Positions 1-32,919 of a stretch of DNA of 32,919 nucleotides are shown here, in pieces. The notes below the pieces were generated by a model. The model saw only the letters and a list, made by a program, of their open reading frames with translations. It was not told the origin of the DNA and made no database searches. The position numbers and the translations under genes are program-made. Positions within the stretch are counted from its first letter, which is position 1. The number at the start of each line of letters is the position of its first letter. The stretch lies in IMG/VR virus record IMGVR_UViG_2541047853_000004, one strand, 5' to 3'. The stretch is from a virus (Duplodnaviria > Heunggongvirae > Uroviricota > Caudoviricetes).

Positions 1-1053
1 TTACGGGGTAATGCCAACCGCTGCCGCCACTTTGTCGCCACTTGGCAGCGTTGCCAGAGGATTGAAACGGAGCGCCGTTTCCAGATGATCCGGTGCTAGA
101 TGTGCGTAACGCATCGTCATTTTTATATCGTGGTGTCCGAGAATTTTTTGTAAGGCCAGAATGTTTCCACCCGACATCATGAAGTGCGCCGCAAACGTAT
201 GGCGCAGAACGTGTGTGAGTTGACCGCGAGGGAGCACGATAGACGTTTTTTCCATCACGGATAAAAATTGAAAATAGCAGTCTGTGAAGAAATTGAACCC
301 ATCAAGCGCCATGATCTCTTCGTAAAGCTCTTTACTGATAGGGATGCTTCTGTTTTTCTTCCCTTTCGTTCTGACAAAGGTAATTCGGTATTTGGTCACC
401 TGTGAGCGGGTAAGATTTACGGCTTCACGCCAGCGTGCGCCTGTGCTTAAGCATATCTTAACTACCAGTGCCAGAATTGGGTCCTGACGTTTGCAATCAG
501 CCAGCAATTCAACAATCTGCTCATGGGTAAGCCATGCCATCTCTTTTTCTGCGATGGTGAATTTTCGCATGTTCTCCAGTGGGTTCGGATACGACCATTC
601 GCCCAGACGGGATAGTTCGCTAAAAACACTACTTAGATAGCTTTGCTCCAGGTTAATGGTGACCGGGCTGGCTCCTTTCTTCCATTTCTCGCTGAAGTAG
701 ATCTCACCTGTCAGTCGTTTATCTCGATAATGGGCAAACATTTTAGATGTGAGATCGGTTGCAAGGGGATTGCCCAGAGCGTCAACCATCAGCAGCAATT
801 TGTCATAGACATGCTGCCCAGCAGTCAGAGATTTACCATGTAGTTTGAACCATAGTTCAACCACGTCTTTCAGTGTTCGACGATCCACTGATTCACCCAG
901 CCAGGGCTTTGCTTCGGTTTCTTCCATCGTGTGGCGCTCAAAAGCCAGAGCTTCGCCTTTGGTGGCGAATTGTTTACGCACACGACGCCCACTGCGTCCG
1001 GCGGGGTAACATTCGCAAAGCCATTTTCCTGTGGTGAGTTTTCGTACTGCCAT
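1..1053 (-). CDS. int: tyrosine integrase, P2 Int-like
   Basis: 350-aa ORF starting MAVRKL (P2 Int starts MAIKKL by recall). C-terminal catalytic boxes VLRHTFAAH and MRYAHL are present. Start ATG is rc of 1051-1053. Confidence 0.9.
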   Translation of the reverse strand: MAVRKLTTGKWLCECYPAGRSGRRVRKQFATKGEALAFERHTMEETEAKPWLGESVDRRTLKDVVELWFKLHGKSLTAGQHVYDKLLLMVDALGNPLATDLTSKMFAHYRDKRLTGEIYFSEKWKKGASPVTINLEQSYLSSVFSELSRLGEWSYPNPLENMRKFTIAEKEMAWLTHEQIVELLADCKRQDPILALVVKICLSTGARWREAVNLTRSQVTKYRITFVRTKGKKNRSIPISKELYEEIMALDGFNFFTDCYFQFLSVMEKTSIVLPRGQLTHVLRHTFAAHFMMSGGNILALQKILGHHDIKMTMRYAHLAPDHLETALRFNPLATLPSGDKVAAAVGITP

Positions 1054-1131: not shown

Positions 1132-1503
1132 TCATAAGTACCGATATGATTGCGGGGCCGTTATGTTATCACCTAATGAACTTAGATGAAGCGGTTGATC
1201 ATAGATTTTTAGATTGCCAATTTCTATAGCAAAGGCTTTTTCTTTGCTATGAAAATATGAGTCAAAAAATTGTTTGCTGATACCTGCGTATTGGCTTGTT
1301 TTTTCCCATACAATACTTGGCTTGTCTTCTATAACATCTGCAATGTCAAATTCAGCAACAACTTTACCGACAGGCATTGTTGAATAAATAACCACAGATT
1401 TTACATCCGGTTTTTTGAAAATTCCTTTTCGGAATTCAAATTTCTTTGTTCCATTAAGGATTTTTTCTACATGCTCTGGGTTAATTGACAATAATACTTT
1501 CAT
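1132..1503 (-). CDS. ASCH-domain (PUA-like fold) protein
   Basis: ORF beginning MKVLLSINPEHVEKILNGTKKFEFRKG...VVIYSTMPVGKVVAEFDIADVIED matches the ASCH pattern as I recall it. Visibly AT-rich. Preferred start is the internal ATG (rc of 1501-1503); the ORF track extends to a TTG at 1515. Overlaps the upstream gene stop. Confidence 0.6.
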   Translation of the reverse strand: MKVLLSINPEHVEKILNGTKKFEFRKGIFKKPDVKSVVIYSTMPVGKVVAEFDIADVIEDKPSIVWEKTSQYAGISKQFFDSYFHSKEKAFAIEIGNLKIYDQPLHLSSLGDNITAPQSYRYL

Positions 1504-2551
1504 TGACGCCACCAAGTTTAATAATGCTATTAAACTGTTCGTTTGTTAACTTCATGATCCCCCAGTAAGCTCGCGGGGATAATCCTACTTCAGAAATAAG
1601 TTTAGCACGATTTAGTCTTTTGGGCAAAGCAAGGTTATATGTAAAGCTTATAATATATGGGTATTTTTTTGTTCTATAAAAACTTTTAAGCTCAGATTCT
1701 GTAAAAACAGAATATCTAGAACAGTAATTTAGAAATTCTTTCTCTGTAACGAAAGAGTTTATATTTCTAACTTTTTCTACTACACATAAAGAAGTAGCAA
1801 CAGAACGGTAATATGCAGGCCCTTGATTATCGGATGTTCGGTATATAACGATTATATCGTTTGGCTTCATTAATTCAACATCTGACATGCCACAAATATA
1901 TACTTTTCTAATGCTATTTGCATATGATACATCAGCAACAACATCTGGTGACTCTGTAATTAATTTTGAGTCAGGGAATAAACGAGTATGAAATACGGGG
2001 TATATTGAAAGCAAGAATTTATTTTCACTGCCTCTGTTATTAATAAATGGATAATCTGACAGTATATCGCCCGTAAGAGCATTACTATTCATTTCTTTTA
2101 TTAGTACTCGCTCTACACCATTTTCAGATTCTTTTACTCCAATATCTATAAAGCCATAGATTTTGAATAGTCTAATTAAGTAGTCATGTTTTTCAAAAAC
2201 AGTCACATATATATTGTTAGCATTATTATCTAGAGCGTGATCGAATATTTTTTTTAAAAATCGTTGACCACGAAGAGTTCCTTTTGGATTAAATTTAAAT
2301 GTTCCAACTTTTAGATGAATACCATCAGGAATATTTGGTTTTGTATCTTCAATGATACCTACTTCTGTTTTTAGATACAAAAAACCATCAATTTTATTTT
2401 GTTCATCATAAAGGACATATGCATAATCATTTGATTTACATTTAGAATGGAACCAATCAATAAACCCATGAGCATAATCGGATTTTAAAGAGTCAAAAAA
2501 AACATCAGAAAAATCTACTTGATTAAAAGGTATGTATTTTAAGTTTTCCAT
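1481..2551 (-). CDS. hypothetical protein: N-terminal GNAT-like acetyltransferase fold fused to a C-terminal PUA/ASCH-like region
   Basis: 356 aa. N-terminal half has a GNAT-like core (LKVGTFKF...LRGQRFLKKIFDHALDNNANNIYVTVF...LFKIYGF). C-terminal half (IIVIYRTSDNQGPAYYRSVATSLCVVEKV...) resembles a PUA-like barrel. AGGA RBS lies 9 nt upstream; start is 2 bp from the upstream gene stop. Very AT-rich. Domain calls are by eye only. Confidence 0.5.
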   Translation of the reverse strand: MENLKYIPFNQVDFSDVFFDSLKSDYAHGFIDWFHSKCKSNDYAYVLYDEQNKIDGFLYLKTEVGIIEDTKPNIPDGIHLKVGTFKFNPKGTLRGQRFLKKIFDHALDNNANNIYVTVFEKHDYLIRLFKIYGFIDIGVKESENGVERVLIKEMNSNALTGDILSDYPFINNRGSENKFLLSIYPVFHTRLFPDSKLITESPDVVADVSYANSIRKVYICGMSDVELMKPNDIIVIYRTSDNQGPAYYRSVATSLCVVEKVRNINSFVTEKEFLNYCSRYSVFTESELKSFYRTKKYPYIISFTYNLALPKRLNRAKLISEVGLSPRAYWGIMKLTNEQFNSIIKLGGVNESIIVN

Positions 2552-2553
2552 GT

Positions 2554-3336
2554 TTACAATCCTATTTTAAAATCACATGATAAGCAAATTGATTTAGTTT
2601 TAGATATGACGGCGAGTGTTTTCCCCGGAGTTTGACAATTAGTACAAACATTCCAATTTTTCGGTTTTCCATCAATCTTATATATGTTGGCTAAAATATC
2701 ATCTAAAGGAAAAAATGTTTTCATCATGTCTATAATGCTTGCTGCATAGTTTTTCTTTGCCTCGACTAATTTTTGTTCAGGCATGTTTTTATCATTTATC
2801 AAGCAATGAACCAGGTTATTAAGAGGCTCTTGATATATCTCCTCTCGAAAAATTAGAAATGCACTTAAAAAGTCTTTACGTATTTCTTTATTATTACTTT
2901 TACCTAAGTGAATTACTTTATTTCTTTCTTTGCGCAAAATATCATAAATTTCATTAAAGCGCGGTGAAAGATTTCGCCCACTGATACTTTGTGCTATTCT
3001 ATGTAGCTCGGTTGCGTCTAATGTTGAACATTCGAAAAATGATTTGTTTTTATAGCAGTCTTTTACTTCTTTTAAAAGTAAATAAACACTATGCTCAGCA
3101 ATTATAGACTTTAGATATATTTCAGCAGAATTAAAGAGTATTACTAAGCCAGATTGAAAGAAACTCTCTTTTTCGGATATTAAGCGTTTCAGTCGTTGTT
3201 CTTCTGTTTCAGGTTGAGCTGGGGCTTGCAATAACTCAATGTCAGAATAAAAGTGTAAGTAGAATGTTTTAATGAAAAACTCAAGGTTCCTTTTGGCATA
3301 AAGAAGCATCTCTTCATTGTTAGGAAGGTCTGTCAT
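2554..3336 (-). CDS. hypothetical protein with HEPN-type Rx4H motif (RNKVIH) and C-terminal CxxC-x16-CxxC zinc ribbon
   Basis: 260 aa. Motif ILRKERNKVIHLG is encoded at 2908-2925 (rc AGA AAT AAA GTA ATT CAC). C-terminal CTNC...CLSC. Start ATG directly follows the cI stop (TAAATG on the minus strand) with an AAGGA RBS. Very AT-rich. Confidence 0.5.
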   Translation of the reverse strand: MTDLPNNEEMLLYAKRNLEFFIKTFYLHFYSDIELLQAPAQPETEEQRLKRLISEKESFFQSGLVILFNSAEIYLKSIIAEHSVYLLLKEVKDCYKNKSFFECSTLDATELHRIAQSISGRNLSPRFNEIYDILRKERNKVIHLGKSNNKEIRKDFLSAFLIFREEIYQEPLNNLVHCLINDKNMPEQKLVEAKKNYAASIIDMMKTFFPLDDILANIYKIDGKPKNWNVCTNCQTPGKTLAVISKTKSICLSCDFKIGL

Positions 3337-4293
3337 TTAAATATCCTTATATATACCAAAACATTTTGCTATTACATTAATATCCGCTAATAGACATTCA
3401 AAAGTTGTACTTTCATTAGATACTTTTACTTTTGCAATTGGAATTCTGGTTAGATCTCTAACACTAAATTTTCCTTCGATTTCAACTAACCATTTTCCAT
3501 CGGTTACTTCATCAAATGCTTTGTCTGCAAGATATACATTTCCTTCATCTACTATAGATATGGGGTTTTTCACCTTGCTGGGTAACATGGTTTTATCAAA
3601 AGGGAGATAATTTGTATCAAACAACATACCATTTATAACTTTTTTCCGTGTGATAGCAATAATATCGCTCTTAGCGTCTTCAAAGACGGGACCATTACCG
3701 GTTGTTAGCCACATTAATGAAGCTCCGGTTTCAAGTGCGCACTGGATGATCCAATCAGCTGGAAAGGTATCTCTCATGTAACGATTGGCTAATGTGCTTT
3801 TTGAAACACCAATGTGATCCGCTAGAGCTTGCCTTGTCTTAAATCCATAGGCGATAACTATTCGCTCGATTGCCGCTTTTCCTCCTTGATTAACCTCAAT
3901 GAGGCTCTCGTTCTTTCGGTGAGTATTGTTCTCATTTGGGGATTTTGTGTCTAAAGTGAGAGAATGAATCTCCTTACCATCTTTATGGTGGTTCTGTTCT
4001 GTATTATGTGTGACAGCCTCTACTGTGTTATCGGTACCAAATGCCAACCATTCAACCGACACGCCAGTTTCCATGCTGCAGATTATGACCCAGTCGGCAG
4101 GGAAGGTATCACGAGCATATCTGTTCGCCATTGTGCTTTGGGATATCCCTAAGTGGTTACAGAATGCTTGACGTGAAGTGAAGCCATAAGCTTTCAAAAT
4201 TCGGTCAATGACCTGTTGCCCTCCACGATTCTGCATGATTACAGTTTTCATTGCATCATCAACATGGCGAAATGTGATTTTGTGTGTTGACAT
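3337..4293 (-). CDS. cI: immunity repressor, 186 CI-type, with tandemly duplicated N-terminal HTH domain
   Basis: 318 aa. Two consecutive copies of the phage CI-repressor HTH signature (ILKAYGFTSRQAFCNHLGISQSTMANRYARDTFPADWVIICSMETGVSVEWLAFG and IVIAYGFKTRQALADHIGVSKSTLANRYMRDTFPADWIIQCALETGASLMWLTTG), then a C-terminal domain. Divergent from apl/cox. Confidence 0.8.
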   Translation of the reverse strand: MSTHKITFRHVDDAMKTVIMQNRGGQQVIDRILKAYGFTSRQAFCNHLGISQSTMANRYARDTFPADWVIICSMETGVSVEWLAFGTDNTVEAVTHNTEQNHHKDGKEIHSLTLDTKSPNENNTHRKNESLIEVNQGGKAAIERIVIAYGFKTRQALADHIGVSKSTLANRYMRDTFPADWIIQCALETGASLMWLTTGNGPVFEDAKSDIIAITRKKVINGMLFDTNYLPFDKTMLPSKVKNPISIVDEGNVYLADKAFDEVTDGKWLVEIEGKFSVRDLTRIPIAKVKVSNESTTFECLLADINVIAKCFGIYKDI

Positions 4294-4381
4294 ATCCGTT
4301 TTGCGATCCTATTCTCCGATTTGTGAAGTTGAAGTCACGATTAAAACCTGCTTATCACAAGACAATAGGAGATGTTGCATC
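4294..4381. promoter_or_regulatory. lysis-lysogeny switch region between cI and apl (face-to-face or divergent promoters and operators expected)
   Basis: 88-bp intergenic region between divergently oriented repressor and excisionase genes. Contains gtgaagttgaagtcac (4323-4338) with a GTGA...TCAC inverted pair. AGGAG RBS for apl at the 3' end. Promoter positions not resolved. Confidence 0.4.
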
Positions 4382-4603: not shown

Positions 4604-4635
4604 TTCCATTTTGGGATACATCAGGGGTGTCGACC

Positions 4636-10053: not shown

Positions 10054-10287
10054 ATGCGCATTGAAATAATGATCGATAAAGAGCAGAAGATTAGCCAGTC
10101 TACCCTGGACGCCCTTGAATCCGAGCTTTACCGCAATCTGCGCCCCCTGTATCCCAAAACGGTAATTCGCATTCGCAAAGGTAGCTCTAACGGTGTGGAA
10201 CTAACCGGACTGCAACTGGACGAAGAAAGAAAACAAGTGATGAAAATTATGCAGAAGGTGTGGGAAGACGACAGCTGGCTGCATTAA
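10054..10287 (+). CDS. DinI-family protein
   Basis: 77 aa; MRIEIMIDKEQKISQSTLDALESELYRNLRPLYPKTVIRIRKGSSNGVELTGLQLDEERKQVMKIMQKVWEDDSWLH parallels E. coli DinI as recalled. In the LexA-box operon. Confidence 0.7.
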   Translation: MRIEIMIDKEQKISQSTLDALESELYRNLRPLYPKTVIRIRKGSSNGVELTGLQLDEERKQVMKIMQKVWEDDSWLH

Positions 10288-10599: not shown

Positions 10600-11145
10600 A
10601 TGGACGTTATAACTGGAGTTGCAGAGTTTTTTCGAAAAGTACCTGCAGCATTTCTTGTGGCTATTACATGTGTTTTAGGTCTTATACTTTTTCTGCCAGA
10701 CTCTTTGGCAGTAAAAGTGGCTGTTGATGGCTTTCGTAATGAGTATAGGATTTTTATTGGACCTGCATTTTTACTGTCTGTATCTTATTTAGTTGCAAGA
10801 GTCTATCTCTCTTTCTATGACTTACTTGGTGAAAGGCAGGCTAAGAAGGTACGCACTTCCTACCTTGAGAAGCTAACAGCAGAAGAAAAAGGATATTTAA
10901 AGTCTTATATTACCGAAGGTGTTAATTCACTTATGTGTGGGCCTGAGGATGGGGTCATGGGGGGACTTGTGGCTAAGGGGATTACTTATAGAGCCACCAG
11001 TGTTGGGGATATGATCTACGGTTTTGCTTTCAACTTACAGCCATGGGCGCGTGAACATTTAGAGAAAAATAGTCATTTATTAGATGGGGCTATTGGGCGT
11101 GCAATGACTCCAAGAGAAAAATTAAACTTTAGATTGGGACGCTAA
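10600..11145 (+). CDS. AT-rich accessory membrane protein (two predicted N-terminal TM helices), candidate superinfection-exclusion/abortive-infection protein
   Basis: 181 aa with GGAGG RBS. Hydrophobic segments AAFLVAITCVLGLILFLP and IFIGPAFLLSVSYLVARVYL. Visibly lower G+C than flanking genes. Sits between the A/cos region and Q. Confidence 0.5.
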   Translation: MDVITGVAEFFRKVPAAFLVAITCVLGLILFLPDSLAVKVAVDGFRNEYRIFIGPAFLLSVSYLVARVYLSFYDLLGERQAKKVRTSYLEKLTAEEKGYLKSYITEGVNSLMCGPEDGVMGGLVAKGITYRATSVGDMIYGFAFNLQPWAREHLEKNSHLLDGAIGRAMTPREKLNFRLGR

Positions 11146-32700: not shown

Positions 32701-32919
32701 ATGATGATTTGCCCACTGTGTGGAAGTGCCGCCCATACTCGCAGCAGTTTTCAGGTATCTTCATTGACCAAAGAGCGTTACAACCAGTGCCAGAACATTA
32801 ACTGCAGCCATACTTTTGTTACCCATGAAACTTTTGTTCGTTCGATTGCAACGCCAAAAGAGTCAAATCCGGTTCAGCCACATCCAATGAAATCAGGACA
32901 GGTGGCGCTCTCTCTTTGA
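32701..32919 (+). CDS. ogr: Ogr/B-type zinc-finger late transcription activator
   Basis: MMICPLCGSAAHTR...ERYNQCQNINCSHTF is the Cys4 Ogr/Delta signature (P2 Ogr begins MFHCPLCQHAAHART by recall). GGGGAG RBS. Stop is the last three bases of the window. Confidence 0.8.
   Translation: MMICPLCGSAAHTRSSFQVSSLTKERYNQCQNINCSHTFVTHETFVRSIATPKESNPVQPHPMKSGQVALSL

Follow-up and report, generated by a model that had tools for sequence, protein, structure and literature searches.

A 186-type CI repressor with two predicted DNA-binding heads per subunit in an Escherichia coli prophage

Few alternatives to the lambda switch have been studied as thoroughly as the CI repressor of phage 186, seven dimers of which form a wheel that wraps the pR promoter and bridges to flanking sites. 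The C repressor of phage P2 is a protein of about 99 residues without the 186-type C-terminal domain. In 186, the left-flanking site FL lies 285 bp to the left of pR inside the cI gene, the right-flanking site FR overlaps the −10 region of pE, and two CI sites are present at pB. According to excerpts of the respective reports, the sites occupied by 186 CI dimers are separated by two DNA turns at pR and by 32 bp at pB (PMC3675496), P2 C and CI are unalignable with C being about half the size of CI (PMC3448106), and a mycobacteriophage immunity repressor is monomeric and recognizes one asymmetric site with two domains (PMC9283540). Here we describe the cI gene of a 186-like E. coli prophage (IMG/VR record IMGVR_UViG_2541047853_000004), which encodes a 318-amino acid protein with two CI-type DNA-binding modules. 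The DNA that was analyzed, referred to below as the window, is 32,919 nucleotides long and is bounded by the int stop codon (position 1) and the B/ogr stop codon (position 32919); it holds essentially the whole prophage minus the att ends.

A previous reading of this DNA, made without database searches (the sequence-only reading), had proposed that the gene encodes an immunity repressor with two consecutive CI-type helix-turn-helix (HTH) modules and a single C-terminal domain. Pfam, BLASTP and AlphaFold all returned this layout. Two stretches of the 318-residue protein matched Phage_CI_repr (PF07022; 192.9 bits summed, cut-off 22) and residues 214–312 matched Phage_CI_C (PF16452; for the E-value see Table 1), and these were the only families above the gathering threshold. 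Comparison of the N-terminal 114 residues with the remainder of the protein by BLASTP aligned one head with the other at 41 identical positions out of 77 (53%, E = 4e-32), a similarity between the outer head (N1) and the inner head (N2) that, as aligned, is far beyond chance. The module had been estimated at roughly 55 residues; the duplication stands, and the module is closer to 65 residues. An AlphaFold monomer model, for which the input alignment comprised 45 relatives, predicts five-helix bundles for both heads (predicted local distance difference test score, pLDDT, about 88–92) and a confident beta structure for the C-terminal domain (CTD). Both copies are therefore intact HTH domains, and the second is not a degenerate non-HTH region. 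Residues 89–134, rich in Asn, Thr, Glu and His, have a pLDDT of about 30 in the model and are read as a disordered linker; given this value and a predicted template modeling score (pTM) of 0.39 for the whole model, no fixed packing between the modules is predicted.

The modeled CTD was superposed by Foldseek on the CTD of 186 CI (2fkd) with a template modeling (TM) score of 0.92 and a root mean square deviation of 1.4 Å over 109 columns. Homology to 186 CI was also detected with 2fjr (E = 3.4e-31), which aligned to residues 141–318 only, such that N2 is the sole head aligned. Chains of LexA were only distant fold matches to the modeled CTD (E about 1e-6, 8–12% identity), and no match to Peptidase_S24 (PF00717) was found by Pfam at E ≤ 1 in the 318-residue protein, which sets it apart from repressors of the lambda CI/LexA type. 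Because of the homology to 186 CI, the CTD superposition and the position of the gene between int and the divergent apl-cII genes, we identify the protein as the prophage immunity repressor, a 186-type CI that would carry two DNA-binding heads per subunit.

Most NCBI records begin the protein at Met20 (299 residues; window position 4236) and not at the upstream ATG (position 4293; 318 residues), which overlaps the −35 element of pR. The 299-residue form occurs on more than 900 contigs. Met20 is not conserved among relatives, which have VLQN, VIQN or ILQN there, and the upstream frame is open and conserved. Reading the sequence by eye, we found no internal start for a short isoform consisting of N2 and the CTD, since there is no Met between residues 76 and 173, and the former −35 element is decayed. 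The 22-residue leader that precedes N1 has a mean identity of 59% among two-headed CIs, and its DNA overlaps both a repeat (R1, see below) and the −35 element of pR.

Across the 45 relatives, mean identity was 71% for N1 and 76% for N2 (78% and 84%, respectively, for their HTH helices), compared with 19% for the linker, whose length ranges from 35 to 51 residues, 17% for the hinge, and 34% for the CTD. Both heads are thus constrained in these alignments, and neither resembles a decaying relic. That the CTD diverges far more than the heads is the reverse of the usual expectation that immunity specificity resides in the DNA-binding head, and may reflect pressure against mixed oligomers or antirepressors. 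The sequence-only reading had also described the gene as AT-rich like the adjacent cargo. This description applies to the part encoding the CTD (30.5% GC, compared with 31.4% for the cargo) but not to the parts encoding the heads (46–48% GC).

Two kinds of single-headed CI proteins were informative for assigning sites to heads: those of 206–208 residues (N1-type) and those of 187–199 residues (N2-type). A consensus scan gave one promoter-like site, the candidate pR in Table 1, which occupies the same position as the annotated 186 pR and is conserved in relatives. Matches to CGWWWTGYGAW on both strands of the window numbered three (0.61 expected), namely the repeats R1, R2 and R3 at this promoter, and a matrix derived solely from relatives ranked the same repeats first to third (17.8–18.6 bits; next hit, 12.4 bits). 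All three are on the same strand, with a spacing of 29 bp between R1 and R2 and 20 bp between R2 and R3, and they are conserved in two-headed and in N1-type single-headed phages. In Klebsiella phage ST13-OXA48phi12.1, which encodes a single-headed N1-type CI, the second spacing is about 10 bp longer as counted by eye, and the helical phase would therefore be kept. Operators of the 186 type were searched for as TTCAC-N2..11-GTGAA and its everted form with at most one mismatch. No TTCAC-N5-GTGAA operator was present in the window, and the near matches by pR (for example at 4312 and 4323) overlap R3 and do not count as separate sites. General repeat searches around the switch yielded short, chance-level pairs only. 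The suggestion that operator half-sites might be found near 1055–1131 was not borne out, as this region has neither TTCAC nor GTGAA and the nearest hit of the N1 matrix (position 1157, 11.1 bits) is below the shuffle background.

A second matrix was built from the pR operators of single-headed N2-type phages, which have the palindromes GATCTCATTTGGGTAC and GTTCCCATTTGGGTAC at that promoter. On the 35-kb genome of Klebsiella phage KP12 this N2-operator matrix singled out only the two operators at pR, which scored 24.2 and 23.3 bits, compared with 10.8 bits for the next distinct hit. In the window it found no N2-type palindrome at pR. Its best hit is a palindrome in the DNA encoding the linker, which scored 21.2 bits, compared with 9.9 bits for the next best site in the 33 kb; in shuffled sequences the top score averaged 13.5 bits and never exceeded 19.4 bits. 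This palindrome lies about 360 bp to the left of pR and is a candidate equivalent of FL. Among 12 two-headed lineages it is kept in seven, at +299 to +362 nucleotides, even though the surrounding linker is unalignable. We also considered covariation between helix and operator, as an ATRY-type N2 goes with a different internal site (GATTTCATTATCGAAC); the signal is weak and we do not rely on it. Finally, the 10-mer TTCCATTTTG occurs exactly twice in the window, at the FR position directly after apl and upstream of B/ogr. Sites with this 10-mer are common to two-headed phages and to single-headed phages of both the N1 and N2 types, and the pB region is also found in KP12. It is possible that the 10-mer serves as a low-specificity site shared by these CIs, or that a different factor binds there.

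Table 1. Features of the repressor locus and its candidate sites in the 32,919-nucleotide window.
Feature	Coordinates	Strand	Basis or remarks
int	1–1053	−	Open reading frame
cI	3337–4293	−	318-residue open reading frame (stop within coordinates); Pfam 2x PF07022 + PF16452; 186 CI homology
C-terminal oligomerization domain (CTD), residues 214–318	3340–3654	−	PF16452, E = 6.7e-31; fold match to 2fkd
Inner head N2, residues 136–202, recognition helix SKSTLANRYMRD	3688–3888	−	Domain limits; pLDDT about 90
Linker, residues 90–135 (46 residues)	3889–4026	−	Predicted disordered, hypervariable; pLDDT about 30
N2-type operator-like palindrome GTTCTCATTTGGGGAT, candidate FL equivalent	3928–3943	+	In linker-coding DNA
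Outer head N1, residues 23–89, recognition helix SQSTMANRYARD	4027–4227	−	Domain limits; five helices, pLDDT about 88
N-terminal leader, 22 residues, MSTHKITFRHVDDAMKTVIMQN	4228–4293	−	Common to single-headed N1-type CIs such as P0107
Repeat R1 GGCGAAATGTGATTT	4266–4280	+	Directly upstream of −35
Candidate pR: TTGACA (4287–4292), 17-nucleotide spacer, TATTCT (4310–4315)	4287–4315	+	Consensus scan, 10/12
Repeat R2 TCCGTTTTGCGATCC	4295–4309	+	Within pR spacer
Repeat R3 TCCGATTTGTGAAGT	4315–4329	+	From −10 to about +8
apl-like gene, 73 residues	4382–4603	+	Open reading frame and position
FR-position site TTCCATTTTGGGA	4604–4616	+	Directly after apl stop; motif shared with pB region; positional equivalent of 186 FR
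cII, 169 residues	4636–5145	+	PF06892 Phage_CP76, E = 3.2e-42
pB-region site TTCCATTTTGCAA	32637–32649	−	Upstream of B/ogr
B/ogr gene	32701–32919		Far end of window

The two heads are not the product of a recent duplication or fusion. The DNA segments encoding them are only about 58% identical (116 of 201 columns), hence the copies are old, and among 46 two-headed clusters the identity between N1 and N2 is the same within one protein as between proteins (58%), which rules out a recent duplication. N1 heads are instead 71% identical to each other, N2 heads are 76% identical to each other, and N2 heads are 74% identical to the heads of single-headed CIs of 187–199 residues. The window N1 head is up to 88% identical to the heads of N1-type CIs, and those proteins also carry the same 22-residue leader and the same pR DNA and layout as the window. 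On the other side of the linker, N2 and the CTD together align colinearly with the single-headed CI P0035 at 75% identity. Single-headed CIs of 198 residues have an N terminus, MSTSKYPNEIKINPNQGG, with homology to the tail of the linker (KSPNENN...VNQGG), and likewise the 3′ end of the linker DNA is homologous to the 5′ end of a single-headed N2-type cI. The DNA just past the linker tail resembles a decayed pR −35 region, in which TCTAAAG stands in place of the TTGACAT of single-headed phages. The apl and cII genes on the right side of pR are almost the same as their counterparts in single-headed N2-type phages. Because N1, the leader and pR match N1-type phages while N2, the tail and the CTD match a complete 198-residue CI, these alignments identify cI as an old in-frame fusion of an N1-type cassette, comprising pR operators, leader and head, to the start of a complete N2-type cI. 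The sequence-only reading had named recombination between two immunity regions among the possible origins, and this is supported by the different single-headed phage types to which the two halves are related.

Sequence comparisons show that the two-headed family has been reshuffled since this fusion. N2 plus the CTD is closest to a single-headed CI in nine of 44 two-headed proteins, and for the window protein, P0002, P0015, P0024 and P0025 the identity to the closest single-headed CI is 75–91%. The N1 recognition helix is of at least five types (SQSTMANRY in 30 clusters, SSSTLANRY in five, SASTMGTRW in three, SKSTLATRY in two and SNSTLANRY in one), and the N2 helix is mostly SKSTLANRY (29 of 46 clusters). 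In the clade of Salmonella phage PSP3, inner heads are 64–84% and outer heads 41–79% identical. The two heads of a Shewanella protein (P0210) are each other's closest relatives (69%), as are those of P0234, a 330-residue protein with two heads and a Peptidase_S24 domain (67%), and we therefore consider that separate duplications occurred in these two proteins. On this comparative evidence the two-headed layout has arisen at least three times independently. The Shewanella two-headed proteins have 315–334 residues. HMMER reported three to five matched stretches in a few proteins, for two of which Pfam showed one PF07022 (P0245) or none (P0262), leaving the additional stretches unconfirmed.

The layout is also not peculiar to this prophage. 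Two-headed proteins of 291–330 residues make up 47 of the 120 closest clusters at 90% protein identity, with sources in E. coli, Klebsiella, Salmonella, Citrobacter, Enterobacter, Kosakonia and Edwardsiella, and some of these clusters hold hundreds of sequences. The cluster of the window protein has 119 member sequences, one of which was found on 914 contigs, and the cI region is 100% identical in nine complete E. coli genomes among those listed and at least 99% identical in 27 of 5426. Among deposited phages, 4LV2017, ST11-OXA245phi3.1 and others from Klebsiella encode two-headed CIs that are annotated just as repressor CI. For ST11-OXA245phi3.1 (L087, MK416009.1), the annotated CI spans 1..774 and a tblastn match extends to 936, so that the annotation omits part of the outer head. 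A search with the N2 head alone against representatives at 50% identity detected further, far more distant two-headed proteins with the same Pfam architecture, named from Pantoea, Citrobacter, Enterobacter hormaechei, Edwardsiella tarda and Shewanella. Of 52 related loci in a collection with one genome per species, only two were two-headed; the form is therefore frequent in some Enterobacterales and is not the standard of the 186 family, in which 186 CI itself is single-headed. No description of tandem heads in a 186-type CI was found in a literature search that left most subscription journals outside its reach. Two-headed CI is a variant that is widespread and recurrent in the 186 CI family and apparently unstudied.

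The explanation that we favor, with a probability for the whole of about one half, is that the protein is an old fusion in which pR is repressed through N1, with N2 bound to the internal site and perhaps to operators of rival phages. Subunits would oligomerize through the CTD, as 186 CI does. The N1 heads would bind R1–R3, thereby bracketing the −35 element, the spacer and the −10 element of pR and turning the lytic operon off, and the N2 heads would bind the internal palindrome, allowing bridging or looping similar to that at FL. N2 might in addition bind the operators of incoming single-headed N2-type phages. The flexible tether of 46 residues would let the outer heads contact sites that are out of range for the inner heads, and the former 5′ end of the second cI would have become the end of the linker. 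It is plausible, as had been suggested, that a duplicated head alters operator geometry or specificity. Several observations weigh against this explanation. We inferred the assignment of heads to sites from homology with single-headed phages, and at least two operator types are found among single-headed CIs that have the helix SKSTLATRY in common, so the helix sequence alone does not predict the operator. The motifs of the two types are alike (CCGATTTGTGA for N1 and CCCATTTGGGT for N2), and either head might bind both. The internal palindrome is degenerate or absent in five of the 12 two-headed lineages, and because it encodes a short P-N/I-E motif of single-headed CI N termini, it could reflect conservation at the protein level or be a mere relic. 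Neither N1 nor N2 could be singled out as the head acting at the FR and pB sites, as TTCCATTTTG is identical in all three repressor classes.

Those lineages in which the internal site is lost or degenerate would also fit a scheme in which N1 alone matters: N2 would be left over from the fusion and retained for dimer geometry or as a folded spacer, and the palindrome would be a fossil. The pR operators are indeed those of the N1 lineage, with no N2-type palindrome among them, and N1-type single-headed CIs manage with one head. We nevertheless consider this scheme unlikely, because N2 is the best-conserved part of the protein, with its recognition helix the same in most clusters, and a spacer would be expected to drift like the linker; moreover, several exchanges of N1 type have left the two-headed layout in place, and other clades acquired it independently. 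A second head might instead serve mainly to widen superinfection immunity, with N1 acting at the prophage's own pR and N2 plus the CTD silencing incoming single-headed phages of the 198-residue group. Such phages are abundant in the same hosts and share the N2 recognition helix, a single-headed CI is colinear with N2 plus the CTD at 75% identity, and the window has no N2-type operators at its own pR. As a principal role this is doubtful, since the CTDs differ (34% identity), the operators of the single-headed phages vary in their flanking bases such that cross-repression is not assured, and the retained internal site is left unexplained. It is compatible with the favored explanation and not exclusive of it.

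The converse proposal, that only N2 binds DNA like the sole head of 186 CI and that N1 is an accessory such as an antirepressor decoy or sensor, draws on the position of N2 beside the CTD, where the 186 head is found, and on N2 being the only head that aligns to 2fjr. A DinI-like open reading frame in the window, which by eye is like the DinI-like part of 186 Tum and PSP3 TumB, would also fit with it. We regard the proposal as very improbable: the pR repeats match those of single-headed N1-type phages and are not accompanied by N2-type palindromes, within a given N1 type the recognition helix hardly varies, and relatives with other N1 types have a pR sequence that differs along with N1. Finally, we reject the possibility that the gene is an artifact, that is, a misassembled, frameshifted or pseudogenized fusion of two adjacent repressor genes, as the region is identical in the nine listed E. 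coli genomes, the protein belongs to a 119-member cluster, and 45 further clusters have the same open reading frame and layout. The outer head is much more variable than the inner head in both the window and PSP3 clades, and the Shewanella and S24 duplications are independent of them. For these reasons we tentatively suggest, as a possibility that we still think less than even, that two-headed CI is a recurrent, selected design in which a constant inner head is combined with an exchangeable outer head that moves with its own pR operator cassette. If this is true, one recombination event could switch or widen immunity without orphaning the other sites of the repressor or its oligomerization domain.

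Two-headed CI is relevant to the question of what determines operator spacing, looping and immunity specificity. If the same 14-mer wheel forms as in 186, it would display 28 heads of two kinds on a long flexible tether. Modular recombination of such proteins is in addition a concrete means by which temperate phages could alter or extend their immunity. Since two-headed CIs are common in prophages of E. coli, Klebsiella, Salmonella and other Enterobacterales, many with defense cargo beside cI, their behavior would affect prophage stability and phage competition.

The cargo in the window is an AT-rich island on the minus strand (1132–3336, 31% GC) located between cI and int. Its open reading frames at 1481–2551 (356 residues) and 1132–1515 (127 residues, with an ASCH domain) match the A and B components of PADLOC PDC-M11, a candidate defense system in that database, with E-values of 2.4e-130 and 4.9e-48. 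The remaining open reading frame (2554–3336, 260 residues) gave weak matches only (DUF3644, E = 2.4e-5) and no Pfam or PHROG family. Cargo at the same spot differs in other prophages with two-headed CIs, for example a GmrSD_N protein in L146. The apl-like protein had no Pfam match and is labeled in RefSeq as a hypothetical protein or MerR family regulator. Farther into the window, the DinI-like open reading frame at about 10057–10287 begins with MRIEIMIDKEQ; its likeness to PSP3 tumB and the DinI-like end of 186 tum was judged by eye only. An open reading frame of 181 residues (10600–11145) with a hydrophobic N-terminal stretch lies directly before the portal gene and may mark a second cargo site.

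Among described systems, 186 is the closest on most counts. Its CI shares the HTH family and the C-terminal fold with the window protein, and the gene order int, cI and divergent apl-cII agrees with the annotated 186 map except for the 2.2-kb cargo island between int and cI. In 186 the operators at pR form a cluster with neighbors two to three DNA turns from each other, similar to the candidate sites in the window, and its intragenic left-flanking site, its site after apl and its site near B/ogr all have putative sequence counterparts. The differences lie in the repressor and its operators. 186 CI has 192 residues and one head, much as the sequence-only reading had stated (about 190 residues with one module), whereas the window protein has 318 residues and two heads. 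The 186 operators are inverted repeats (TTCAC-N5-GTGAA and a TCTC...GAGA type), whereas the window pR has three repeats of the same orientation. The 14-mer wheel is a feature of 186 CI; for the window protein we have a monomer model, in which the CTD fold is predicted to be conserved. In P2, according to an excerpt of the report, C represses the early promoter via direct repeats (PMC2995052), and the likeness to the window is confined to the same-orientation repeats at pR, as the window protein is not a small single-domain protein of the C type. The mycobacteriophage repressor, compared here by its published description only, likewise has two DNA-contacting domains in one polypeptide, but the window protein, as far as that description goes, differs in having two like HTH copies and an oligomerization domain.

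PSP3 is a cultured, long-known 186-like phage. Its CI (NP_958086, 286 residues; L149 23218–24078) also has two PF07022 stretches and one PF16452, is colinear with the window protein over 281 residues at 30% identity, and belongs to a separate two-headed clade with proteins from Pantoea, Citrobacter, Enterobacter and Edwardsiella. Neither inspection by eye nor a repeat search gave clear operators at PSP3 pR. A 2011 comparison credited CI in both PsP3 and a CFT073 prophage with a "longer C-terminal domain" (PMC3448106); as far as the excerpts of that paper go, the second head seems to have been overlooked. The nearest relatives of the individual parts are single-headed. N2-type CIs, such as that of Klebsiella phage KP12, share the N-terminal tail, the head, the CTD and the apl-cII region with the window, although their pR palindromes do not occur at the window pR, and N1-type CIs, such as P0107 of Salmonella diarizonae, share the leader, the head and the pR repeats.

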